Below are positions 5,355 to 44,055 of a stretch of 64,000 bases of DNA, one piece after another. The notes under the pieces are model-generated. The model was not told where the DNA came from and searched no databases. It was given only the letters and a program-made list of their open reading frames with translations. Origin of the DNA: a phage; the NCBI GenBank assembly GCA_037574385.1, contig GCA_037574385.1_4529.1, one strand, 5' to 3'. The position numbers were made by a program, and so were the translations under genes. Every line of letters begins with the position of its first letter. Position 1 is the stretch's first letter.

Positions 5355-6455
5355 TTACGCTGTGAAGATTTTATCCCACATTGCAACAACTGCATCTCGG
5401 TTATACTTCTTCCATACTGCTTCAGCACGTTTAACTCGAGCTTCGTATGTGTCAGTGAATTCTAATACAGCTTTTGTGTAAAGCGCAACTACTTCTTTCT
5501 TAGGAGTAGAGGAATCAATTTCTACACGCACAGTATCTGGGTCATATTCGAATGTCGCATGCGGATAATCCTTAAAAACTAACTGAATTACAGGGACACC
5601 TTTAGAAATGGCTTCAATAGAACTATTCTCTACCGTACCTGTGTCAGGACACGTATTAATAAGTGCTTTAGCTGTTTTAAGACGTTCCATAATTTCACTG
5701 TGTGGAGCATCAATAATAACAGGATACTTAGCCGGTGGTGCCCATTTACTAGGACAGTATCCTGCGCCATTTTCGCCTAGTGCTTTAATCGCTTCAAGAG
5801 CAACATCAGTACGACGCATTTTAGTGTCATAACGTTGTGCACTAATAATCAGATCAGTCGCCGGAAGAACTTCAGGTTTCTCATTCAAACAAATAACCGG
5901 ATAATCTTCGGCTTCAAACAACGGATTTGCTCGCCAATAATCATAATCAATTTTGTCAGTCAGACCTGAAGTCATATAACAATATTTGCGTTCAAATTCA
6001 CGGAAGGCTTTAGTAGGAGCATAACTCTTACCACCGTTCTTATGAATTTGAATAGTCTGGTCCCAAATTTGAACAATGCCACGAGATACCGGCTCAAACG
6101 GTGTTGCCATAAAATTCTTATGAACTTTAGAGAGACCTGCGTCTTTAATTGCCTGAACGGTTAGTTTAGTCGGTTCCATTGTAACAACGAAATCGTACTC
6201 ATTAATGCCGGCTAGTTCAACAATCTTACGAGCCATAGTATAACTCATACCTAGACTGAATTTAGTCAGATGACCAACAGGATGATGATTAACCTTCCAA
6301 TCACCAAACGTGTCATTATCAAAGCCGATATAATCAATATCAGCACCGATGGACACAAGATATTTCAACACATTTAAATGTACTGCTTCAAGACCACCTT
6401 GTACACGTTCTGGGTTAAACGGGACTGCGCGAGATGGGATAAACATAACTTTCAT
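5355..6455 (-). CDS. GT-B fold glycosyltransferase (GT4-like), candidate DNA sugar transferase
   Basis: 366 aa; C-terminal TGTVENSSIEAISKGVPVI resembles the GT4 E-x7-E/G-PVI donor-binding motif; sits between rIIA.1 and gene 39 where T4 has gene 60/mobA. Confidence 0.65.
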   Translation of the reverse strand: MKVMFIPSRAVPFNPERVQGGLEAVHLNVLKYLVSIGADIDYIGFDNDTFGDWKVNHHPVGHLTKFSLGMSYTMARKIVELAGINEYDFVVTMEPTKLTVQAIKDAGLSKVHKNFMATPFEPVSRGIVQIWDQTIQIHKNGGKSYAPTKAFREFERKYCYMTSGLTDKIDYDYWRANPLFEAEDYPVICLNEKPEVLPATDLIISAQRYDTKMRRTDVALEAIKALGENGAGYCPSKWAPPAKYPVIIDAPHSEIMERLKTAKALINTCPDTGTVENSSIEAISKGVPVIQLVFKDYPHATFEYDPDTVRVEIDSSTPKKEVVALYTKAVLEFTDTYEARVKRAEAVWKKYNRDAVVAMWDKIFTA

Positions 6456-8337: not shown

Positions 8338-8364
8338 ATTCTATCATCCGAAATCTAAAGCAAA
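8338..8364 (-). promoter_or_regulatory. middle-type promoter (MotA box TTTGCTTTA, 12-nt spacer, TAGAAT) for gene 39
   Basis: Minus strand TTTGCTTTAGATTTCGGATGATAGAAT; MotA box abuts the T-run of terminator 8355-8380. Confidence 0.45.
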
Positions 8365-22461: not shown

Positions 22462-22775
22462 ATTTCCTCGCAAAATGCCCATTCAGCGTGATAAACTGTA
22501 GCACCTTTAGTATCGTTCATTTGAACTACGTCTACCGGAGAAATTACTCGATAGAGACGTGGTTCACCTCCATAAGAGCGTGCTGCTCGTCCTGCATAAA
22601 TCTTTGCTAAACCGATATCTTCAGTAAAGAATACACGATTCAAGTTTTTCTTACGTCCAGTTTCAGACAGAACTCCTGTTTCTTCAGGAGGACAAAGCAT
22701 GTTTTCGATGTTAGCTGAACTACTTGAACCGTGATAAAAAATCTTAAATTCTGCTTTACAATCGATGGTTTTCAT
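22458..22775 (-). CDS. hypothetical protein (105 aa)
   Basis: GGAGAA SD; early promoter 22802-22830. Confidence 0.5.
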   Translation of the reverse strand: MKTIDCKAEFKIFYHGSSSSANIENMLCPPEETGVLSETGRKKNLNRVFFTEDIGLAKIYAGRAARSYGGEPRLYRVISPVDVVQMNDTKGATVYHAEWAFCEEI

Positions 22776-23293: not shown

Positions 23294-24736
23294 TTAAAAT
23301 TTTAACTCATTGGCTAAGCTATCTAGGTCAGCACGTGTTGCTTTGGCTTTACCTACGCGTTCCGTACGATTCACCTCTGCCTGACGCATCTGAGCACCTG
23401 CGTTTTCATTTACTGTGTTAGGTGTGTTCATGCCTTCTTGCTCAATCTCAACCCATTTCTGATTGCCTTTACGTACACCCATCAAGAACTTGTTCCACTT
23501 ATTCTTATCACCATATCGTGATTTGATTTGTTTGATAAGTTGTTGTTCAGCTTGTGCAAGTTCTTCAGTTTCAATTACGGCCAACATGAAATCTGCCGTT
23601 GCTGGTAAACCTGCTGATTCTGCAATATCACTCATGTTCATGTCTGAAGCATCCCATGCTGCACGTCCTACTTGAGCTGCAGTCCATAGAACTGTTTCAG
23701 ATTCTACTGCTAATGCACGAAGTTCTTCTGCAATAGCTTTAACTAATGTGTAACTATTTTCAGTGTAAACTCTGATACGACAAGACCCACAAATACCTAA
23801 GTAATCGACTATAATTACAGACGGCACAAAGTTCTTCTTAAGTTTCAATTCATTAAGCAATGCACGGAATGTATTAGCATTAGCTCCACCAGTAGGATAC
23901 TGTTTGACTACTAAACGTCCTAATGTTGATTTTGAACGCCATTTTTCCATCTTGGCTTTATATTCAGCATAAGATACGTTACCATCATCGATATCATCGA
24001 GTGATACGTCAAGCATGTTTGCATCTATACGCTTAGCACAAACTTCTTCAGCCATTTCCATGGAAATATAAAGAACATTATGTCCTGTTTGAAGATAATC
24101 TGCAGCAAGTGAACAAAGGCCTAAAGATTTACCAACGTTAACACCAGCCATTAAAACGTTCAGTGTACCTGTTTCTGCGCCACCTTTGGTGATTTTATTA
24201 AGAATGTTTAATTTGAACGGGACCTTACGTGCTTTATTTAGATAAGAAAGCCAGCGTGCTTCATAGTCTTCCATCCAGTCATGTCCAACATAACTATCGA
24301 ACGAAATTGAAAGTGCTTGACGCATAATATCAGGAATAGCTCCTACGTCAGGCATTTTCTTGTTACGTTGTTCTGGAGGTAGTTCAGCATTAGACTGAAT
24401 CTCAATGATTTTGGATGTAGCATTATACATCGCTTTTTGCTGGACATATTTCTCAGTTTCTTTAACCAACCATTCGTGGTCTTCAGGAGTATCAGCCAAT
24501 TTTTCAATTAGGTCTGAAGTTCCTTTATATTCGGCTTCAGTTAAAGAACTGTTATCTAAAGCCACCTTTAATGCATTGATGGATGGCATTGCATTATATT
24601 CGTTAACGTGGCTCTTTATAATTTTAAAGACATTTTTTGCCGGTCCACGCTCAAAATACTCAGAATCCATATAAGGCCAGACCTTAGAAAAATAAGCCTG
24701 GTCGTATACGAGATGAGACAAAATAATTTCTACCAC
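23294..24736 (-). CDS. 41: replicative DNA helicase gp41 (DnaB family)
   Basis: 480 aa; RecA-like core with Walker A GVNVGKS; N-terminus matches recalled T4 gp41; order 41-40-uvsX as T4. Confidence 0.9.
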   Translation of the reverse strand: MVEIILSHLVYDQAYFSKVWPYMDSEYFERGPAKNVFKIIKSHVNEYNAMPSINALKVALDNSSLTEAEYKGTSDLIEKLADTPEDHEWLVKETEKYVQQKAMYNATSKIIEIQSNAELPPEQRNKKMPDVGAIPDIMRQALSISFDSYVGHDWMEDYEARWLSYLNKARKVPFKLNILNKITKGGAETGTLNVLMAGVNVGKSLGLCSLAADYLQTGHNVLYISMEMAEEVCAKRIDANMLDVSLDDIDDGNVSYAEYKAKMEKWRSKSTLGRLVVKQYPTGGANANTFRALLNELKLKKNFVPSVIIVDYLGICGSCRIRVYTENSYTLVKAIAEELRALAVESETVLWTAAQVGRAAWDASDMNMSDIAESAGLPATADFMLAVIETEELAQAEQQLIKQIKSRYGDKNKWNKFLMGVRKGNQKWVEIEQEGMNTPNTVNENAGAQMRQAEVNRTERVGKAKATRADLDSLANELKF

Positions 24737-26351: not shown

Positions 26352-26900
26352 TTAACGAGCCCATTTGATAATTTCTGTAATCAAATTATTACGTTCGCTT
26401 GCATTAAATCCTATAACTTTGTTAGCACCATCATGATTAAGTAATTGATACGTTTGGATTTTGTTATGAATTGCAAACTCTTCAAAATGTGAAATGACTG
26501 TATTAAAACCGAATGAAGACAAAGTAATAAGGTCGTCTTCAAAACTTTCAGTCATTTCGTTACGTGTTAAAATAATTGTGAACACATCATGGTTTTGGCA
26601 AAGACGAATATAATCCTGTTCATAAACGTCAAGAACCGAGTCCGCATCTTGTCGAATACGTCCATAAACCCAGTTACTAATATATCCACGGTCTAATAGA
26701 TAAATCTTAGTAGGGTCTAAATAATTCAACATCGTTTCGAAACAGCCAACTTCATTTCGAGACTTAACATCGAAACGCCCATCAACTGTTCGTTTAGGGA
26801 AATCAATCTTTACATATCTTTCACTAATTTCCATTATGTCATTAATGAAAGTTGTTTTACCAGCATTATCCGGTCCGTCTACTAAAATAATTTTAGCCAT
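26352..26900 (-). CDS. P-loop nucleotide kinase (thymidylate/dNMP kinase-like)
   Basis: 182 aa; Walker A VDGPDNAGKTT and DRGYIS lid-like motif; at the T4 beta-gt locus between uvsX and 42. Confidence 0.6.
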   Translation of the reverse strand: MAKIILVDGPDNAGKTTFINDIMEISERYVKIDFPKRTVDGRFDVKSRNEVGCFETMLNYLDPTKIYLLDRGYISNWVYGRIRQDADSVLDVYEQDYIRLCQNHDVFTIILTRNEMTESFEDDLITLSSFGFNTVISHFEEFAIHNKIQTYQLLNHDGANKVIGFNASERNNLITEIIKWAR

Positions 26901-26901
26901 T

Positions 26902-27801
26902 TTATTCCTCGATTACGACATCTTCGTATTTAGGTATATTATACGGTGAAGAAATTAAAGCATTAAAGTAGATGAACTCACCAAGACCTGGATGGAATAC
27001 TTCTTCAGGATTTTCGAAATATTGAATCTTCGGACGTCCTTTAAGAATTTGATAGTACTCAGTTTTAGTTGGTTTAAAAATTCGAATCAGCGCTTCTTCA
27101 GGGTACTTATTTCTGTCGAAGCTAATATTTGGATCTGTTATATAAAGCGGTTGGCCTAATTGAATTGCACATTCAACCACTTGTTCAAAACGATAGCACG
27201 GGTCACTAATTCGAAATGGATGAAAAATACCATCTAGATGAATAGGAGCCAAATCACCTACAAGACGCTGCATGATGGAAGGACGTATAACTTTCTGCGT
27301 TACGATAATCTTATTACCATCTGCACCTGCGTTAACCAGCACTTCCTTTTGACGTTCATTCAACACAGTAGTTTGAAGTGAACGATTAACCGACAACATA
27401 TCGGTTTTTAAGAATTCATCAATATAAAAGCGTGGTTTATTAGGGTCTGTAGTGATATTGAAATTGAATTCCACATCAAAAGCGCCATCATATCCAGTGA
27501 TATCTGTGATTAGAAAATCACAATCATAATAAGCAATTAATGAATCAACCACAAATTCATTTTCAGACCAGAAATATTTACGAGTGTTATACGCGTTATC
27601 TTTATACCATAATGGAACAAACTTAAATTCCGGGAAAAGACGTTCACATTCTTTAATATCAGATGCATTACGTGGATATGTAATCACATCACCCGGATTA
27701 GCACGGTGCAAATGAAGTTGGAAGTTGCCATCCTTAAGGATAGCATACTGTCCAGTTTCATAAGACCGCATACTCAAGATTGGTACGCGGAAAATAGCCA
27801 T
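26902..27801 (-). CDS. hypothetical protein (299 aa) at beta-glucosyltransferase locus; candidate DNA-modification enzyme
   Basis: Translationally coupled to gene 42; no similarity to recalled T4 beta-gt; function by synteny only. Confidence 0.55.
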   Translation of the reverse strand: MAIFRVPILSMRSYETGQYAILKDGNFQLHLHRANPGDVITYPRNASDIKECERLFPEFKFVPLWYKDNAYNTRKYFWSENEFVVDSLIAYYDCDFLITDITGYDGAFDVEFNFNITTDPNKPRFYIDEFLKTDMLSVNRSLQTTVLNERQKEVLVNAGADGNKIIVTQKVIRPSIMQRLVGDLAPIHLDGIFHPFRISDPCYRFEQVVECAIQLGQPLYITDPNISFDRNKYPEEALIRIFKPTKTEYYQILKGRPKIQYFENPEEVFHPGLGEFIYFNALISSPYNIPKYEDVVIEE

Positions 27802-28517
27802 TAGTCAAGGAATCCTTTAACATAATCAAAATCACGTTCAAACACATGGGCACTTACCATGGTATGAGTATAATCACCAACTTCTACACCGCATTCGTTA
27901 GCGATATAATGAAGTAATTTTCCTTGGAGATAAAAATCCAACTGCATAACAACAGCACAGTTCTGAGAACGCATATGGCAGTGCGTATAAAGCTTACCAT
28001 CACGAATATAATAAGTAACTGAGTCAGTACATGGATATTCAAGCGTTTCGTCTGAATCAAGCAAAGCCTGATCAGAACTTTCTAGAATTTGGAACACAAC
28101 TCTTCGGGAGTTAGGCTTCTCTTTAAGTTCTTTTAGAAGAGCTGGTAATTGGGCCGCAATGCGAGGACCATAGAAAGTGTTGAAGTTCGCCGGCAAAACA
28201 TCTGATTTTGGTTTAGAAATAAATTTAGCGACATTAGGATATGCCTTAAACGCTTCTTCTGCGTTGGTACCACCAGAAATCATAAACTTCCAGAAGTCTT
28301 CGGCATATTCATAAGAGATGCGGTTAATACGTGGGTCGGTCATTTTGAATGATGATGGAGTGTCAACAACTACTGTCATAGACCCAATTTCATTACAACG
28401 TCCAATACGAGAATCAGTTACGAATTCCGGGTTTTCTAAAATTTCACGATTGACTGCTTTAAATGCGGTTTGAAAATCTGCGGCTTTGATATATTTCATT
28501 GTGTTATGTTTTCCCAT
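27801..28517 (-). CDS. 42: deoxycytidylate 5-hydroxymethyltransferase (thymidylate synthase fold)
   Basis: 238 aa; RRVVFQI...YPCTDSVTYYIRDGKLYTHCHMRSQN parallels T4 gp42 catalytic region; position between uvsX and 43. Confidence 0.8.
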   Translation of the reverse strand: MGKHNTMKYIKAADFQTAFKAVNREILENPEFVTDSRIGRCNEIGSMTVVVDTPSSFKMTDPRINRISYEYAEDFWKFMISGGTNAEEAFKAYPNVAKFISKPKSDVLPANFNTFYGPRIAAQLPALLKELKEKPNSRRVVFQILESSDQALLDSDETLEYPCTDSVTYYIRDGKLYTHCHMRSQNCAVVMQLDFYLQGKLLHYIANECGVEVGDYTHTMVSAHVFERDFDYVKGFLD

Positions 28518-28536
28518 GTTTACCTCAATACAATTT

Positions 28537-28559
28537 ATTATATACTCAATTCGTAAAGC
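28537..28559 (-). promoter_or_regulatory. possible middle-type promoter for gene 42 (imperfect MotA box GCTTTA, 11-nt spacer, TATAAT)
   Basis: Minus strand AAGCTTTACGAATTGAGTATATAAT. Confidence 0.3.
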
Positions 28560-28799
28560 TTATTTGAATTTCTTGACAATGTTGATATAACGTAAAGCTT
28601 CAGCATCGATACTTCCAAGGACACTATGAAGAAATGCATCAGCGTAGTATTCCAATTGAATAGGTTCTTTAATCACTTTAGCCGCTTTGGTTTCAAACAG
28701 GCCCATCAGGGCCTTTTTAAGAATTTGTTCGTTGCTGTTAATTTTCGTAGTCAAAATCTCTTCATTAAGTTGGTGGTTAAAAGTTTTTCTAGAAATCAT
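28560..28799 (-). CDS. hypothetical protein (79 aa)
   Basis: ATGA-coupled to upstream gene. Confidence 0.45.
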   Translation of the reverse strand: MISRKTFNHQLNEEILTTKINSNEQILKKALMGLFETKAAKVIKEPIQLEYYADAFLHSVLGSIDAEALRYINIVKKFK

Positions 28800-29956
28800 T
28801 CCGGGTACCTCAAAGCGTCATCAGAGTTAGTTATATCAATAATAGATATAGAGTTTTCTGCTAACCCATTTTTAGATAATTGACGTTTATAATATCTTTC
28901 ACAATATGTACACGTTGACCCACAGATTTCATTAGCACAATCAAAATCAGGATGTCTGAACCACCTTTTTTCTAAAAAGCCATCTAACAAAGAGGTTTCA
29001 ATATTTACTGTATGTGAAAACTCAGTCTCATTTTCAAGAGTGAAAATAGTCTCTAAAGGCTTCCACAGTTCTAACAAATTACCTTCAAACTTTTCAGAAG
29101 CGTATGCTTCAAGAACTTTCAAAATGTAGTCTGTGCTACCTGTACGTCCTGAAACTTTGAATTGAGTGATACCAATATCATTATAAAGTTTCAAATCTTG
29201 AGGACGAACAAAACGAGTTCTCAACCAGTTAAATGGGTCTGTATCACGAGCTTTAATACAGTGCTGCATTGGATATCCATTTAAGGATTTAGCATCATCA
29301 GCTGTAACATCAGTACTATGGAAAATATAGCAAGAGTCACGATAGCTACAATGTGTTGTATACCCTTTACCAGCATTAGAACAGAACTCATTTACAAGAA
29401 CTTCAAATATTATATTGTTCTTATTGCAAAACTCTGCTGCACGCTTCAGGAAAGAAACTGAACGGTTCTTATGAATTCCACAGCAGACCTTTTTGATATT
29501 ATATTGGTCATGCAAGTATTTGATTTGAGTTACGGCATCGACATGTAGAATTGTTGAAACTTCAATCTCAATATCTTTATTGACTTCACGAACAATTTCC
29601 ATAACAACAGGGTTAGCGATAGTAATACGCCATACGCCTATTGACCAAAGATACTGAACATAATCCTGAATAGCTTTCTTCTTCCACTCAACTAGTTCTC
29701 TTTTTGAACCAGGATTTATCGTGTTGAGTGTATAGTTAAAGCAAATACCTAATTCGTTACAACGTTTAACGTAGTCTTCTAACATCTTTTTGTCAACGTC
29801 AGGAAGCCTAAAATCAGGTCTGGCTGCTACAAAAGCCATTTCTCTTGTAGAGCCATATACTTCGTTTATCAAGCTATTAGGATAGGTTTTATTGAGCTCT
29901 ACGATTTTATCAAGAAGAGCTAAATCAAAATTCGTTCCGATTTTAAAAGTATTCAT
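28796..29956 (-). CDS. Cys-rich putative Fe-S protein (386 aa), unknown function
   Basis: Track ORF (GTG) trimmed to first ATG; Cys cluster VCCG...EFC...EFCSNAGKGYTTHCSYRDSC and C-terminal CGSTCTYC (CX3CX2C). Confidence 0.55.
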   Translation of the reverse strand: MNTFKIGTNFDLALLDKIVELNKTYPNSLINEVYGSTREMAFVAARPDFRLPDVDKKMLEDYVKRCNELGICFNYTLNTINPGSKRELVEWKKKAIQDYVQYLWSIGVWRITIANPVVMEIVREVNKDIEIEVSTILHVDAVTQIKYLHDQYNIKKVCCGIHKNRSVSFLKRAAEFCNKNNIIFEVLVNEFCSNAGKGYTTHCSYRDSCYIFHSTDVTADDAKSLNGYPMQHCIKARDTDPFNWLRTRFVRPQDLKLYNDIGITQFKVSGRTGSTDYILKVLEAYASEKFEGNLLELWKPLETIFTLENETEFSHTVNIETSLLDGFLEKRWFRHPDFDCANEICGSTCTYCERYYKRQLSKNGLAENSISIIDITNSDDALRYPE

Positions 29957-30012
29957 TTTTTTGCATCTCACGTTAATTGATGCGATGGTTTTTGCAGGTC
30001 TTACTTAAATTA

Positions 30013-30399
30013 TTATAGATTCGGTTTATATGATTTAAATGTTTCGAATTCGCCTTTATTCATAAGAGCTTTGAATTCGTCAGGACGCATAGCTTTGTCG
30101 TCGATAATCCAATCATATACTGGTTTATGTGTTAGCAAATTATGGTACTTCAAGCCAATGTTTGCCAAGTTCTGAATCAGACTTGGGAGAATGTCAATTG
30201 CTATACGTCCAGGACCTACTGACTTCATACCACGAGCAGTGTAAAGCGTTATGGTATGCCCTGCATCATACAGGGCATTAATGGCAGACACCATTTCGAC
30301 GTCTGGTTTGAAGTTCACGTAATCGCGATTGTTATTCCATTCTGTGATGCAATCATCGACATCAAAACAAAGATTAAGCATGTTTTCTACACGGTGCAT
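30013..30399 (-). CDS. HAD-superfamily phosphatase (small; start uncertain)
   Basis: N-terminal LCFDVDDCIT (HAD motif I-like), LYTARG, YDWIIDDKA; chosen ATG overlaps upstream stop (TAATG); alternative ATGs at 30414 and 30381. Confidence 0.55.
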   Translation of the reverse strand: MHRVENMLNLCFDVDDCITEWNNNRDYVNFKPDVEMVSAINALYDAGHTITLYTARGMKSVGPGRIAIDILPSLIQNLANIGLKYHNLLTHKPVYDWIIDDKAMRPDEFKALMNKGEFETFKSYKPNL

Positions 30400-32084
30400 T
30401 AGATTTGTTCCCATTGATGAGTGATATCGCCACCGATTGGACGATAAGAAACACCAGTTTCTTTATCAGTTAGTACCCATTTACCAGGATTTTTTGTAAT
30501 CAGAGTAGCCGTTACAGGTTCTGCTACGTCATAACTAATAGAGCCGTCTTGAAGTACACGGCCCATGTTACGTAATTGCTTAGTTAGAAGTTCCATACCT
30601 TTATAATATGCGGCTACCGCTTTAAGTGGATTATTCTTGAAATAACCACCTAATGCAATCCAGATAATTGCCACTGCCAAATGATGATACTCGTTAAACG
30701 AACTCATCTTTCCATATTTGTAAACTAATGGATTGATGTTAATAGTCACATTACAAGTTGTTTCATCAATAATAAACTGGCCCCAGGTCGGATTAGCGTT
30801 GAATTCATCATAACCTGAAACAGCATAAAGCACTTTAGCTTCATCATACAATTTTGGCCCGTAAATCTTGGTTTCACCAAAATATCCACGAGGGTCGATA
30901 AACTTGACTTCGCCGTTATCAGTAATCATAGTATTACTGAAGTTCGGGTCACCGTGAATAACAGAGTACTGTCCCTGAGAACGGTTATGATAACGAATAA
31001 GGTGTTCTAAAGCTTGTTTCAGCATTGGCTTCAGACGTCCAATCTTAGTGTAGTTCACGTGTGTGATTTTACCAAATGAATCAATCAATGGCTGAATGCT
31101 TTCACAACGATCAATAACTTTCGTATAGAACTCTTTAGTGAAATCACGACGAACAGTTTCAGGACTTACAAAATAAATGTCTGTGTTAAATTTCAGTGCA
31201 TCTAAAATTGCATCAATAATTTGTGGACGAGCAAGACTTGATTTGGATTTAATATATTCAAATGCTGGCTTACCTTTAATGCGTTCCATTTCAAAGTTAT
31301 TTTCATTAACAGAAACTAACTGAGGAACTGAATCTGATTTCACTTTCAAATACCATGAAATCTCATCTTTTTGAAGAGCTCGACCTTGTTCAGTTAATGC
31401 GAATTTAGTTACAGTTTCTTCACCAATTTCAACCGCATTAAAACTACGATTAAGTTCACGAACTTCATGAGCTTTTTCAAGTTTAGGCATATCACCAAGG
31501 TCGATGATATTCATAAGCTCTGATTTATTGAATGCGCCGCTGTAAAGGAATTCTACAAAATCACGTCCTTTGCAGTATTCGTGAATTTCCTCATCAGTAG
31601 AACCCATGTAGAATTCCCAGTCTTTGAACTGATAAATTCCTACAACATTACCGCCTGTTGCACCTACATTAGTGATATTTTCACCATCGAAATTATATCG
31701 ACATTCATCACCTTTAACATAGATTGCGTTAACATTCCAAGACCATGAACCAAAATCAGGAATAATATCACACCAGTTAACAACTACGTTATGGCCGTCT
31801 AAATCTTTGTGTAATTTAGCAAGAGCATAAGCAGAACCATACGCTTCATCAACTGTACGAATAGTCACATTGAACCCTTCTTGCTCACAATAAGCTCGAA
31901 CAGTTTCAGCAAATTTTGAATGAACTACTACAATAATTTCATCTGCGCCAAGGTCAGAATAAATTGTATACAAATTGCTCAGAATAGTGTCTTGTTTATA
32001 GTTCACAAGAACTTTTGGAATATGGTGAGTAATTGGATATAAACGAGTTGCCAATCCAGCACCAAGAATAACAGCTTTTTTCAT
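30399..32084 (-). CDS. bifunctional sugar-1-phosphate nucleotidyltransferase / APH-type sugar kinase
   Basis: 561 aa; N-terminus ILGAGLATRLYPIT (RmlA/GlmU-type G-x-G-T-R-L-x-P-x-T); C-terminal VIHGDPNFSNTMI and IDPRGYFG (APH/choline-kinase catalytic loop). Confidence 0.7.
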   Translation of the reverse strand: MKKAVILGAGLATRLYPITHHIPKVLVNYKQDTILSNLYTIYSDLGADEIIVVVHSKFAETVRAYCEQEGFNVTIRTVDEAYGSAYALAKLHKDLDGHNVVVNWCDIIPDFGSWSWNVNAIYVKGDECRYNFDGENITNVGATGGNVVGIYQFKDWEFYMGSTDEEIHEYCKGRDFVEFLYSGAFNKSELMNIIDLGDMPKLEKAHEVRELNRSFNAVEIGEETVTKFALTEQGRALQKDEISWYLKVKSDSVPQLVSVNENNFEMERIKGKPAFEYIKSKSSLARPQIIDAILDALKFNTDIYFVSPETVRRDFTKEFYTKVIDRCESIQPLIDSFGKITHVNYTKIGRLKPMLKQALEHLIRYHNRSQGQYSVIHGDPNFSNTMITDNGEVKFIDPRGYFGETKIYGPKLYDEAKVLYAVSGYDEFNANPTWGQFIIDETTCNVTININPLVYKYGKMSSFNEYHHLAVAIIWIALGGYFKNNPLKAVAAYYKGMELLTKQLRNMGRVLQDGSISYDVAEPVTATLITKNPGKWVLTDKETGVSYRPIGGDITHQWEQI

Positions 32085-32112
32085 GTTGAAGTCCTCATTG
32101 GTAAGTAGGTGT

Positions 32113-32139
32113 ATTGTACACTATTCTAGTTAAAGCATT
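32113..32139 (-). promoter_or_regulatory. middle-type promoter (MotA box ATGCTTTA, 12-nt spacer, TACAAT) upstream of the nucleotidyltransferase/kinase gene
   Basis: Minus strand ATGCTTTAACTAGAATAGTGTACAAT, 25-30 nt upstream of ATG at 32084. Confidence 0.4.
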
Positions 32140-32269
32140 CATACTTTGCCTGTAGACCAATCATAATCCATCCAATTACAAGTGTTGGAATCATTACTGG
32201 AGCCGTTAAGCTCCAGTAGATAGTCATGACAAGCATCAATAGTAAAAGTCCTATTGTTATTGCTTTCAT
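32126..32269 (-). CDS. small hydrophobic peptide (47 aa)
   Basis: Not in track; ATG overlaps the stop of the SIS gene (ATGA); predicted membrane helices. Confidence 0.35.
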   Translation of the reverse strand: MKAITIGLLLLMLVMTIYWSLTAPVMIPTLVIGWIMIGLQAKYECFN

Positions 32270-32901
32270 TGTTCGCCTCGTAACATGGCACCTAGTGCAC
32301 CGCCAGGGTGGAACTTAAGGAAATCATTAGAGGTAAATCCGCGTTCAGACGAAAGGTTGATAGCGAACGTATCGATAAGCGCTAACAACAATGTAGTGGA
32401 CATAGTCGGAGCTAAAGAGTTCTCGTCAACTTCTACCGCGATACCGGTACAGAATGTATAATCAAAAAGAGCTTCGTATTCTTGTGGAATGTCAGGGTTA
32501 CAATGTAACAGAATCTGTTTAACCTGAGGACGAATCATACGAAGATGTTTAGCAACACCTATCATTTCTTCAGTCTTACCAGAACGACTGATGTGAACTA
32601 ATACATCATTAGGTGCAATGAATCCTGCATCACCGTGAGAATAATGCCCAGTGTTCAAATACATGCTAGGAATACCTAGTGAAGCAAAAGTCTCGGAAGC
32701 TTTAGTTGCGATATTAGCGTTCTTACCAACACCTGTAATAATTACACGACTTTCATAATTACTCAGTCCTGGGCGTCGAAGAGTTTCTAGAATAGCATTA
32801 TAACGAGCAGGGTTTTGACTAATTACTTTGGCCATAGCGGCCAAAGAAGAAGCTTGTTTTATGATTGCGTCAATAGCGATAGTGATTGGTGTAGTTTTCA
32901 T
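32266..32901 (-). CDS. SIS-domain sugar-phosphate isomerase (KdsD/GutQ-like arabinose-5-phosphate isomerase, no CBS domains)
   Basis: 211 aa; ITGVGKNANIATKASETFASLGIPS, ISRSGKTEE, LAPTMSTT, FHPGGALG match KdsD SIS-domain motifs. Confidence 0.7.
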   Translation of the reverse strand: MKTTPITIAIDAIIKQASSLAAMAKVISQNPARYNAILETLRRPGLSNYESRVIITGVGKNANIATKASETFASLGIPSMYLNTGHYSHGDAGFIAPNDVLVHISRSGKTEEMIGVAKHLRMIRPQVKQILLHCNPDIPQEYEALFDYTFCTGIAVEVDENSLAPTMSTTLLLALIDTFAINLSSERGFTSNDFLKFHPGGALGAMLRGEQ

Positions 32902-41041: not shown

Positions 41042-41276
41042 CCTCGATACATGCTTCAGCCATTTTAAGAATAGAGCCAGGAGTATCGTTGTCCATTATA
41101 TTAAAGCTAAATTCAATAGCCCAGTCGGTGCAGACATGAACTGCTTTAACTTCATTGCCTTCAACGCGTAATGGCTCAATCCAATACTTGATGGTGTTCT
41201 CGAATCCATCATCATCTTTAACGTCTATTTCAACTTCAAGCCCGAGCCCAGCATTGTTAAATTCATCTAAAGTCAT
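41019..41276 (-). CDS. hypothetical protein (85 aa)
   Basis: ATGA-coupled to gene 47. Confidence 0.45.
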   Translation of the reverse strand: MTLDEFNNAGLGLEVEIDVKDDDGFENTIKYWIEPLRVEGNEVKAVHVCTDWAIEFSFNIMDNDTPGSILKMAEACIEDAYNDED

Positions 41277-42292
41277 TGTGTTGCCTCAATATAAAGTTCG
41301 TTGGAATATTTGACCAGCGCTTCTCTGTCTTCGTCTGAGATATCTGGAATCGCGTCAATATATTCTTTAATGATATCTTGAAGTGATTTAATCTCGATTT
41401 CCTGGTCGTCATCAGATTCAACACTGTTATCAACTTTAGAAACCATACGAAGAGAGTGAACTACTTTTTCAAGTTCAGATTCAAACTTAGTCAACTCTGA
41501 ATCAATTTCTGATACTATAACACGTACGGCTAGATTAGTATAATCAGAATAATTGATTTTGCCTTTAAACGGATAAGTGATTCGTCGATGCCATGTCGTT
41601 TCATTGGGAATAAATTCCATACGTTCAACGTCGGTGTCAAATACCCAGAATCCGCGAGGATCATTCTCGTCACCTGCAGTAAGGGTCCATGGTGTCCCAA
41701 TATATTTGACGTTAGCAGCTTCAGAGATTGTGTGGAAGTGGCCGGACCAGACTTGTTTATAGGTCTTTAAGAAATCAGGTTCAAGCCCATGAGACTTCAT
41801 TCCTTTATAGAAATAAAAGCCGTTCAGTTCCCAGTGCCCAACACAATACGCAGCAGAAGAAGTCTTGATATGCTCTAAGATTTCACCTGTATTTTCTTCA
41901 CACATCCATGGAACGATATCAATCAGACATCCGTCAAAATCTACAGTAGTTGGATGTTCATAAATAGTAAAGTTTTCAAATTGAGTTAACAATTCAGAAA
42001 CAGTGTTAGGTGTTATTGTATTCTTAAACGCCATGTCATGGTTTCCTATCGTGACATGAACGTGAATGCCTGCCTTAGAAATCATATCAACTATTTCACG
42101 ATTGAATTCCATCGTACGATGTGTAATTGCTTTACGGACGTCGAACCAATCACCGTACTGAATCCAAGTTTTAATCCCGTGTTTCTTAGAGTATTCAATT
42201 GCTTGACGAATACCATCACGTTGAATATCTTGGACCCATGGGTCGTCCTGTTTAACGCCGATATGGAAGTCACCTAAATGTAAAATTTTCAT
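41273..42292 (-). CDS. 47: recombination endonuclease subunit gp47 (Mre11/SbcD-like phosphoesterase)
   Basis: Track ORF (TTG) trimmed to ATG giving 339 aa; MKILHLGDFH, GNHD, GHWE phosphoesterase motifs; matches recalled T4 gp47. Confidence 0.9.
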   Translation of the reverse strand: MKILHLGDFHIGVKQDDPWVQDIQRDGIRQAIEYSKKHGIKTWIQYGDWFDVRKAITHRTMEFNREIVDMISKAGIHVHVTIGNHDMAFKNTITPNTVSELLTQFENFTIYEHPTTVDFDGCLIDIVPWMCEENTGEILEHIKTSSAAYCVGHWELNGFYFYKGMKSHGLEPDFLKTYKQVWSGHFHTISEAANVKYIGTPWTLTAGDENDPRGFWVFDTDVERMEFIPNETTWHRRITYPFKGKINYSDYTNLAVRVIVSEIDSELTKFESELEKVVHSLRMVSKVDNSVESDDDQEIEIKSLQDIIKEYIDAIPDISDEDREALVKYSNELYIEATQ

Positions 42293-42480
42293 AAGTCTAA
42301 CGCCGTTATCGCAATGCAAAATAAAACCACAGAAATTAATCCATCTGGGGTACTAAAGAAACCTATCCAACACGCCCTAGTGAATAGATAGAAGGCTAAT
42401 ATCAATATAGTCACACCTAAAAATATAATCATATGTTTTCCTCATTAGTTGGTTCATTTTATCATCCAGAATATAAAGCA

Positions 42481-42508
42481 AAAAAAAAGGAAGCACTAGG
42501 CTTCCTTT
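42481..42508 (-). terminator. intrinsic terminator upstream of gene 47
   Basis: Minus strand AGGAAGC-loop-GCTTCCT followed by nine T. Confidence 0.55.
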
Positions 42509-42669
42509 CCAATTAACACACCGTACAGAGGTTCGCGATTAGACGTGAACTTGATAGGCTTATACGTAATAGTACCTTCATTTTCTGCTTTAATACGAGC
42601 GGCTTCAAATTGAAGTATCATCTCATTTTTGTCAGATTTAATCTTATCAAAATCCATCGAATTCGTCAT
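42496..42669 (-). CDS. hypothetical small protein (57 aa)
   Basis: Not in track; AAGAGG SD; stop lies within terminator hairpin 42481-42508. Confidence 0.35.
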   Translation of the reverse strand: MTNSMDFDKIKSDKNEMILQFEAARIKAENEGTITYKPIKFTSNREPLYGVLIGKEA

Positions 42670-42818
42670 TCATAAAACCTCTTAAACTTTTTCGTATTCG
42701 TAATTCATAAGCTTAAAAATCTGGGTGTTCGTCTTTCATTAGCCACCTGTCCACGTTATCATCGTTTCCACCATTTCTTAACTTGAAATGAATCAACCCT
42801 GCGTTCAGCTTCAGACGT

Positions 42819-43142
42819 TTAAACTTTGTTTGAACTAGCGCCATTAATGATGTCCTCAATAGCCTGACGAGTAGTAACCCACTGGATTTTAATTAACTTG
42901 TCATTATACGGTTGTCGTAGAATATCCCGAGATTTCTTAATAGCATATTCATAAGCTTCGAAGTTGTTTTGAATTGCTGCTTCTTGAGCATGAGCATAAA
43001 GTCGATTTAGTTCGAAACGATTCTTTTTAAGAATCTTTTCGGATTTTTTACGTGCTTCAGCTTCATTTTTCTTTTGTATTTCTTGTAGCATTTTAGCTAC
43101 TGCATCTTCTGCTTCTTTATTTTCAATAATCTCGGTAGTCAT
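42819..43142 (-). CDS. hypothetical protein (107 aa), at the T4 alpha-gt locus
   Basis: ORF between 47 and 55 where T4 has alpha-glucosyltransferase. Confidence 0.45.
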   Translation of the reverse strand: MTTEIIENKEAEDAVAKMLQEIQKKNEAEARKKSEKILKKNRFELNRLYAHAQEAAIQNNFEAYEYAIKKSRDILRQPYNDKLIKIQWVTTRQAIEDIINGASSNKV

Positions 43143-43143
43143 A

Positions 43144-43353
43144 TTATCTCATTAAATTAAAATAAAAACGTCCGTCCTCTTCAATACAGAACTCGTACTC
43201 AACTGGAGTCCCATTTATTGAAAATGACACGTCATGTGGGTTCAAAGGGTCGATGTCAAAATTAATTTTAAATTCTCGACCCAACAGTTTTACCAAATAA
43301 GGGATTGCTTCGTCAAAAGGTTCTTCTAAGTAGTTAGAGATGTCAATTGTCAT
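43144..43353 (-). CDS. hypothetical protein (69 aa)
   Basis: Track ORF trimmed to ATG just past the gene 55 stop; weak SD. Confidence 0.35.
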
Positions 43354-43900
43354 CCTCATATAAAAAATCCAAACTAGGCGAATCGCTAACAACTTCCTTC
43401 TTTTCAGCCCCAGGAGCTTTATAAGCGGATTCTTCATAATGCGTCATTTTATCGTAGATGTCTTGAATAAACGTTTCATCTACCAACGCTACCATATCAT
43501 CGTCATGACTGTCGTAGACATTATGAACGAAGTAACTATATTTCTTTGCAACTTCCTTACGTTCTTTTTTGATACGTTGGACAAAAGCATTAAAACAAGC
43601 TCGAGTTATGTATGCATGTGGGTTATTGTACTTAGTTTCGTCGAAATTATGAAGTCCCTTAATAGAGGCTTCAATCCCATCTGCAATCATCTCCTGCTTC
43701 CAAGACTGGGTATACCCTGAAAAGTTGAAACGTTTGGACAGGCCTTCGGCGATAAGCATAATTGCTAAACCGATGGTATCATTCTGACGAATAATTTTGT
43801 TTGGGTCTTTATTATTTAAGAGCTCCTTTTTCCACTCGATTATAGCAGCGAGAAGCTCTTTATTATTCACATAGTTATTTTTAGGTTTTTGTTCAGTCAT
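43343..43900 (-). CDS. 55: late-transcription sigma factor gp55
   Basis: Track ORF (TTG) trimmed to ATG giving 185 aa; NYVNNKELL...[47 protein letters not shown] near-identical to recalled T4 gp55. Confidence 0.92.
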
Positions 43901-44055
43901 AAGTACCTCTTGGCTCAATTCATAGGTCTATTATATCATAATATTTAGAGACCTATCTTAAAGCACGAGATACTATCAAAGATACGTAACTTTCATAAAG
44001 TTGACGACTTAAAATTCACCAAACTTTTCTTCGGTTATAGCAATTCTAGATAGTT

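Follow-up and report, generated by a model that had tools for sequence, protein, structure and literature searches.

A gene 47–55 interval without a-gt in an RB69-like T-even phage, and probable arabinose modification from elsewhere in the window

The phage DNA analysed here, a stretch of 64 kb that we refer to as the window, very probably carries an RB69-like locus between genes 47 and 55 that is devoid of a-gt, retains the small T-even genes together with a terminator/promoter module, and is accompanied by an arabinose modification encoded elsewhere in the window. None of the three T-even glucosyltransferases (a-gt, b-gt and ba-gt) was found in the window, and the cluster of modification genes known from RB69 is present. 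We propose that the 47–55 interval of the Mosigvirus lineage never carries a-gt or mobB, and that what is left there is the conserved early/middle small genes a-gt.5, a-gt.4, a-gt.3 (inactivated here), a-gt.2 and 47.1. The lack of a-gt and b-gt and the use of arabinose in RB69-like phages are already known from the RB69 record of 2003, Thomas 2018 and Lee 2026.

The identity of the phage was established by megablast of positions 41200-44000 and 30000-54999 of the window against 50,697 phage records. The closest relatives were the Shigella phage ESh27 and the Escherichia phages Mizar, TH12 and CCU7 at 97–98% identity, and approximately 145 further phage records were matched over at least 80% of the query. 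ESh27 and TH12 are classified as Straboviridae; Tevenvirinae; Mosigvirus, the genus of RB69. Moreover, the window and the first ~62 kb of RB69 are collinear (rIIB, rIIA, ORF003c, 39 ... uvsX ... 43 ... 46, 47, 55). By these comparisons the window is a Mosigvirus, that is, an RB69-like T-even phage. The window covers 64 kb of a genome of ~169 kb directly, and for the remainder we used as a stand-in the complete genome of TH12 (Mosigvirus utam, 169,545 bp), which is 97.8% identical and has the same 47–55 haplotype. All genes of the 47–55 interval, its two borders included, and all arabinosylation genes discussed below lie on the minus strand.

The sequence-only reading had held that no a-gt lies between genes 47 and 55, and this is borne out by tblastn with T4 a-gt (400 aa), for which the best match had an E value of 2.6 in the window and 1.4 in complete TH12, both at the level of chance. 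In addition, the six reading frames of the 47–55 interval show no similarity to a-gt. The same search with T4 b-gt (351 aa) gave best E values of 3.0 in the window and 4.9 in TH12, and with T6 ba-gt (279 aa, from AP018814) 4.1 and 2.7, again no better than chance; mobB likewise gave only chance-level matches in the window and in the whole of TH12. Homologues of a-gt and b-gt are therefore found neither in the 64-kb window nor in the complete TH12 genome. Pfam recognises all three enzymes when these are used as positive controls (a-gt by PF11440 AGT, with 862 bits for the T4 protein, b-gt by PF09198 and ba-gt by PF20691 TAGT). The two glycosyltransferase candidates of the window and the kinase described below match no Pfam family at E <= 0.01, these three included. 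The candidates are too divergent for sequence profiles, and their glycosyltransferase fold is taken here from the literature. Within the phage collection a-gt occurs in 657 records; the 30 matches listed of these 657 belong to T4-like phages of Escherichia, Shigella, Yersinia and Salmonella and to Klebsiella phages. In Klebsiella phage KP179 a 47.1-like sequence has an a-gt 66% identical to that of T4 immediately upstream, and therefore the placement of a-gt at 47.1 is not peculiar to the genus of T4 itself.

The b-gt locus had been read as a further indication that the T4 enzymes are not used. It is indeed without b-gt, but it is not empty, for it houses a different glycosyltransferase together with its pathway. 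Where T4 has b-gt and gene 42, the window has an arabinosylation cluster (26352..32901) that is 95–99% identical to RB69 p045-p055, the functions of which we give as in PMC13326640. In the interval from uvsX to gene 42, a 182-aa nucleotide kinase (p045; 26352..26900; 98.4% identical to RB69) and a 299-aa ORF stand in place of b-gt, both 98–99% identical to RB69 p045-p047. The latter (26902..27801; 98–99%) joins p046 and p047 in a single ORF and is the candidate for arabinosyltransferase 1. It is followed by a ThyA homologue, the predicted 5-hydroxy-dCMP synthase (p048; 27801..28517; Pfam Thymidylat_synt), which shares 99.2% identity with RB69 gp48 but no more than 24.8% with T4 gp42, compared with 68–91% identity to T4 for the neighbouring core genes. 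The cluster continues with a U32-like protein (p050; 28796..29971; 99% identical to RB69; Pfam Peptidase_U32), a phosphatase-like protein (p051; 30013..30414; 99%), a nucleotidyltransferase-kinase fusion that unites p053 and p052 in one 561-aa ORF (30399..32084; 97–98%; Pfam NTP_transferase) and an arabinose-5-P isomerase (p055; 32266..32901; 97.6%; Pfam SIS). Outside the cluster, a 366-aa homologue of RB69 ORF003c (p003; 5355..6455; 99.2%) is the proposed second arabinosyltransferase, with a GT-B fold, the role being that given in PMC6024577 and PMC13326640.

The window holds a gp48-type ThyA homologue, two candidate arabinosyltransferases and the genes for synthesis of NDP-arabinose, which together match the gene set of an RB69-type system. 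RB69 has no homologue of a-gt, b-gt or ba-gt, and its DNA contains arabinose (Thomas et al. 2018, PMC6024577). RB69 gp48 has been shown experimentally to convert dCMP to 5-hydroxy-dCMP with flavin and O2, mono- and di-arabinosylated 5-hydroxycytosine replaces cytosine in RB69 DNA (Lee et al. 2026, PMC13326640), and gp46:47 and gp3 are proposed as the first and second arabinosyltransferases (PMC13326640). Set against the arabinosyl-5-hydroxycytosine pathway of RB69 and DLP3 (PMC6024577, PMC13326640), all RB69 pathway genes that belong to this portion of the genome occur at 95–99% identity and there is no difference of substance in the genes; genes 46:47 and 53:52 are each single ORFs in the window, as PMC13326640 argues for RB69. 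From the literature on these 95–99% identical proteins we infer arabosylated 5-hydroxycytosine chemistry in the phage of the window. The thymidylate-synthase homologue would make 5-hydroxy-dCMP, and the NDP-arabinose enzymes and two GT-B glycosyltransferases would then lead to DNA with arabosylated 5-hydroxycytosine, as published for RB69. The proposal that this phage does not employ the glucosylation enzymes of T4, and that another sugar takes the place of glucose, is upheld both by the tblastn negatives and by the RB69 arabinosylation genes at 95–99% identity. As to an alternative sugar modification of hmC, the different sugar stands, but the base is probably not hmC: it is more probably arabosylated 5-hydroxycytosine, the 2018 view of ara-hmC having been superseded (PMC13326640).

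T4-type glucosylation could still persist in this phage if a-gt or b-gt had been relocated to a position outside the window, given that accessory genes move about in T4-like genomes (PMC4122927) and that only 64 kb of ~169 kb was inspected directly. We consider this very improbable. In complete TH12, of the same haplotype and 97.8% identical, none of a-gt, b-gt and ba-gt finds a match (best E >= 1.4), and there is no homologue of them in RB69 (Thomas 2018, PMC6024577). Moreover, the gene 42 homologue is an enzyme of the 5hoC type (99.2% identical to RB69 gp48 and 25% to T4 gp42), and therefore no hmC substrate would be available to glucosyltransferases of the T4 type. Beyond the 64-kb window, the predicted absence of glucosyltransferases rests on a relative of 97–98% identity and on the RB69 literature.

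An a-gt-less locus of the RB69 kind is also what the interval itself displays. Its left border is gene 47, encoding an SbcD-like recombination nuclease subunit (41273..42292; 339 aa; phrog_100) that is 100% identical to RB69 gp47 and 75.8% to T4 gp47. The gene starts at the ATG at 42292 and not at the upstream TTG at 42319, so that a left boundary of the interval at 42320, which presumes the TTG, has to be abandoned. The right border is gene 55, the late sigma factor (43343..43900; 185 aa; phrog_234; 99.5% identical to RB69 gp55 and 90.7% to T4 gp55). A terminator (42510..42484) and ORFs of 57 aa (42496..42669), 107 aa (42819..43142) and 69 aa (43144..43353) had been listed between these borders, and all four are present. 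The list was nevertheless presented as exhaustive and is not: it missed a 47-aa ORF, 47.1 (42289..42432), and the remnant of a-gt.3 (42713..42844). Neither are the listed ORFs anonymous, as they are orthologues of T4 a-gt.2, a-gt.4 and a-gt.5.

The 47.1 homologue is hydrophobic (GRAVY 1.89), and two membrane helices are predicted in it, in keeping with the T4 47.1 annotation as a predicted membrane protein. It matches phrog_6693 at E = 1.6e-27 and T4 47.1 at 36 of 47 residues (tblastn E = 1e-20), and its ORF and the start of gene 47 overlap by ATGA. The 57-aa protein is a divergent allele of a-gt.2 (DUF5486 PF17588, E = 6.5e-19; phrog_2140), with 31/63 residues identical to T4 a-gt.2 and 32/57 (56%) to RB69 a-gt.2, and it sits amid flanking genes that are 100% identical to RB69. 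The a-gt.4 homologue is basic and predicted to be helical (DUF2654 PF10849, E = 1e-27; phrog_951), and is 100% identical to RB69 a-gt.4 and identical to T4 at 60 of 107 residues. The a-gt.5 homologue is acidic (pI 4.2; DUF5491 PF17595, E = 5e-13), again 100% identical to its RB69 counterpart, with 33/72 residues shared with T4, and its ORF shares 11 nt with the end of gene 55. The matches of phrog_6693, PF17588, PF10849 and PF17595 to 47.1, a-gt.2, a-gt.4 and a-gt.5 are full-length and above the cut-off; the order of the genes is that of T4, and their identities to T4 are 46–77%.

The label 'head maturation protease' for a-gt.2 (phrog_17354) was rejected as a propagated mis-annotation; the match is to a family of 62 residues and the same label has been placed on this locus in Yersinia phage vB_YenM_P8. 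A sequence search of the PDB with a-gt.4 gave no match at E <= 1, and for a-gt.2 to a-gt.5, 47.1, DUF2654, DUF5486 and DUF5491 the literature library that was searched contained no paper and yielded no functional lead. The 'a-gt.N' names are positional: they record that the genes neighbour a-gt in T4 and say nothing of a role in glucosylation. Indeed, these small genes are retained in genomes devoid of a-gt and hence are not bound up with glucosylation.

In T4 the 47–55 interval (NC_000866 35428..40157) reads 47, 47.1, a-gt, mobB, a-gt.2, a-gt.3, a-gt.4, a-gt.5, 55. The window agrees with T4 in the flanking core genes and in the identity, order and orientation of the five small genes, but lacks the pair that T4 carries between 47.1 and a-gt.2, namely a-gt (400 aa, PF11440) and mobB, an HNH homing endonuclease. 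In RB69 (NC_004928 38972..41536) the arrangement is 47, a-gt.2, a-gt.3, a-gt.4, a-gt.5, 55, a-gt-less like that of the window, and the RB69 record of 2003 already annotates a-gt.2 to a-gt.5 without a-gt. The small ORFs at the a-gt locus are therefore no sign of anything unusual, since T4 has the same around its a-gt and the RB69 record has them likewise. The window differs from RB69 by its possession of 47.1, which is missing from RB69, by a 121-bp deletion in a-gt.3, and by a longer, different segment downstream of a-gt.3 that aligns poorly. The haplotype formed by 47.1 and a-gt.2 was found at 95% identity or above in only 4 records (97% in Mizar), and by alignment ESh27 and TH12 also carry it; elsewhere the segment occurs at 85% identity in a Yersinia phage and at 80% in phage MX01. 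This distribution points to a small accessory region that undergoes mosaic exchange.

Alignment with TH12, ESh27 and RB69 identified the frameshifted remnant of a-gt.3 at 42713..42844. The 121-bp deletion lies inside the gene, with a GGGTT direct repeat (microhomology) at the junction (42795..42799), and joins the native first 15–16 codons out of frame to the tail, resulting in a 43-aa ORF. By tblastn the N- and C-terminal pieces lie in different frames, and in place of the intact ORF of ~67 aa only residues 1–16 and the last 12 codons are left. A 43-nt probe across the junction, whose flanks are each too short to seed on intact a-gt.3 alleles, had 0 matches in the 50,697 phage records. The junction 18-mer is also absent from IMG/VR, a weak negative given that the intact allele occurs there only twice. 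By these comparisons the deletion is the sole private feature of the interval in the window. It amounts to a natural knockout of a-gt.3 and suggests that under the conditions of its propagation this phage could do without the gene.

Between the start of 47.1 and the stop of a-gt.2, where T4 has mobB and a-gt, there are 63 nt (42433..42495). On the coding strand this slot reads GGAAGCC-TAG-TGCTTCC TTTTTTTT TGCTTTA TATTCTGGATGA TAAAAT ... GAGGAAAACAT ATG, so that its elements are, in order, a hairpin, a run of T, a perfect Mot box (TGCTTTA), 12 nt, a -10 box of the form TAnnnT and the Shine-Dalgarno sequence of 47.1. The hairpin and its T9 run resemble an intrinsic terminator (42474..42510, minus strand; hairpin 42510..42484), with an 11-bp stem and a 5-nt loop that contains the stop codon of a-gt.2, and the RNA folds at -13.4 kcal/mol (z = -2.86 relative to shuffles). 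The site TTTGCTTTA-N12-TAAAAT (42456..42482, minus strand), 24 nt upstream of the 47.1 start codon, resembles a middle promoter of the MotA type. We counted 14 copies of TGCTTYA-N11-13-TANNNT in the window compared with 1.8 expected, a number reached in 0 of 100 shuffles; 10 of the 14 copies are on the coding strand and one falls exactly at the slot junction. By comparison, T4 late promoters (TATAAATA) are absent from the 47–55 interval and a scan for sigma-70 promoters showed no enrichment over shuffles. We infer terminator and promoter function from consensus only, that of the middle promoter from the published T4 consensus (PMC4122927). The putative intrinsic terminator would end the transcript running from gene 55 to a-gt.2, and the MotA-box middle promoter just after it would restart transcription into 47.1, 47 and 46.

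By sequence, this module is the composite known as PmSL, in which a stem-loop leads directly into a Mot box (TGCTT) and, correctly spaced from it, a -10 box; here the hairpin and T9 run are succeeded by TGCTTTA-N12-TAAAAT at 42480..42456. In the PeSL and PmSL motifs (Arbiol et al. 2010, PMC2839356; Comeau et al. 2014, PMC4122927) a stem-loop terminator is likewise followed directly by a promoter, here of the Mot-box middle type, and the module of the window is, like them, placed where related genomes differ by a gene cassette. Neither PMC2839356 nor PMC4122927 discusses the 47–55 locus or RB69, and 'RB69' and 'a-gt' have 0 mentions in PMC4122927. In T4 the mobB-a-gt cassette has a module of similar hairpin and GCTTTATA at either end, one behind a-gt.2 and the other behind a-gt; the window has just one. 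This would fit a history in which recombination between modules brought the cassette in or removed it. We tentatively suggest, as a possibility that we consider less probable than not, that the terminator/MotA-promoter module (42456..42510) served as the recombination joint for gain or loss of mobB-a-gt, that the a-gt.3 knockout and the swapped a-gt.2/47.1 haplotype mark an actively shuffled region, and that the small proteins act independently of DNA glycosylation, for example in host takeover or anti-defence.

The a-gt.3 remnant demonstrates that decay occurs in this interval, and one might suppose that the whole locus is a recently decayed a-gt locus, the small ORFs and intergenic DNA being fragments of the former glucosyltransferase. 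This reading is effectively refuted, and we attach scarcely any probability to it: all six frames of the interval are without a-gt similarity, each ORF is the orthologue of a distinct T4 gene, the 63-nt space between a-gt.2 and 47.1 is filled by terminator and promoter, and the a-gt-less arrangement is common to ~146 records, given as Mosigvirus. It is just as improbable that the ORFs of 57, 107 and 69 aa, which occupy the a-gt position and match Pfam DUFs, provide replacement functions in DNA-sugar modification, as the same small genes stand in T4 beside a functional a-gt and hence are not its replacement, their size falls far short of that of a GT-A or GT-B glycosyltransferase, a-gt.3 is knocked out in this genome, and the arabinosylation functions are assigned to other genes.

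The RB69-like locus without a-gt, accompanied by a probable arabinose modification from elsewhere in the window, bears chiefly on how such genomes are described, and its significance beyond correct annotation is small. In the annotation of phages of this kind, arabinosyl-5-hydroxycytosine should be entered as the modified base in place of glucosyl-hmC or arabinosyl-hmC. The annotation of the base in turn affects the sensitivity that is predicted for these phages to restriction, CRISPR and type IV systems.

The segment at 42289..42760 on the window's minus strand, within the gene 47 to gene 55 interval, is a mosaic haplotype. It is matched at 95% identity or more in only 4 records and at ~85% in Yersinia phage vB_YenM_P8. 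RB69 lacks 47.1, which the window carries, and its a-gt.2 shows only 56% amino acid identity to the window allele, compared with 100% for the flanking genes. Upstream of the a-gt.2 start lies a mini-ORF, ATGAAAGACGAACACCCAGATTTTTAA (MKDEHPDF*; 42713..42745), similar to the N-terminus of T4 a-gt.2 (..VKDEHPTSE..). This likeness suggests that the haplotype carries a remodelled 5′ end of a-gt.2, with 42669 as the new start of the gene. A further match of the a-gt.2 family (42496..42669), at E = 5e-9, is to phrog_17354, which bears the label 'head maturation protease'; a Yersinia phage record carries the same label at its a-gt.2 locus. For a protein of 57-62 aa, this label is almost certainly a propagated mis-annotation.

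The a-gt.3 gene (42713..42844) has suffered a 121-bp internal deletion (junction at 42795..42799), flanked by the 5-nt direct repeat GGGTT and leaving a frameshifted 43-aa ORF. The junction found no match in 50,697 phage records and none in IMG/VR, where the intact allele itself occurs only twice, and the deletion therefore appears private to this genome, which by its sequence appears to be a natural a-gt.3 knockout. In T4 (L002, the sequence compared here) two similar modules, each a GC-rich hairpin with a TTCG loop followed by (T/A)GCTTTATA, bracket the mobB-a-gt cassette at 22586..22624 and 24681..24731, whereas only one such module (42456..42510) stands at the equivalent position in the window.

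With regard to the arabinosylation genes, p046/p047 and p053/p052, each split in the RB69 reference record, are here single uninterrupted ORFs of 299 aa (26902..27801) and 561 aa (30399..32084), which fits the published view that sequencing errors account for the splits in RB69. The positional homologue of gene 42 (27801..28517) shares only 24.8% identity with T4 dCMP hydroxymethylase, against 68-91% for neighbouring core genes, and 99.2% with RB69 gp48, a published 5-hydroxy-dCMP synthase (Lee et al. 2026, PMC13326640).

Lastly, the whole window contains 14 copies of the MotA-box middle-promoter pattern TGCTTYA-N11-13-TANNNT, where 1.8 would be expected. Most of them lie on the coding strand, with minus-strand examples at 8338, 16936, 26938, 32113, 39622, 42456, 49499 and 61583. 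This pattern could help to chart the phage's middle transcription units.
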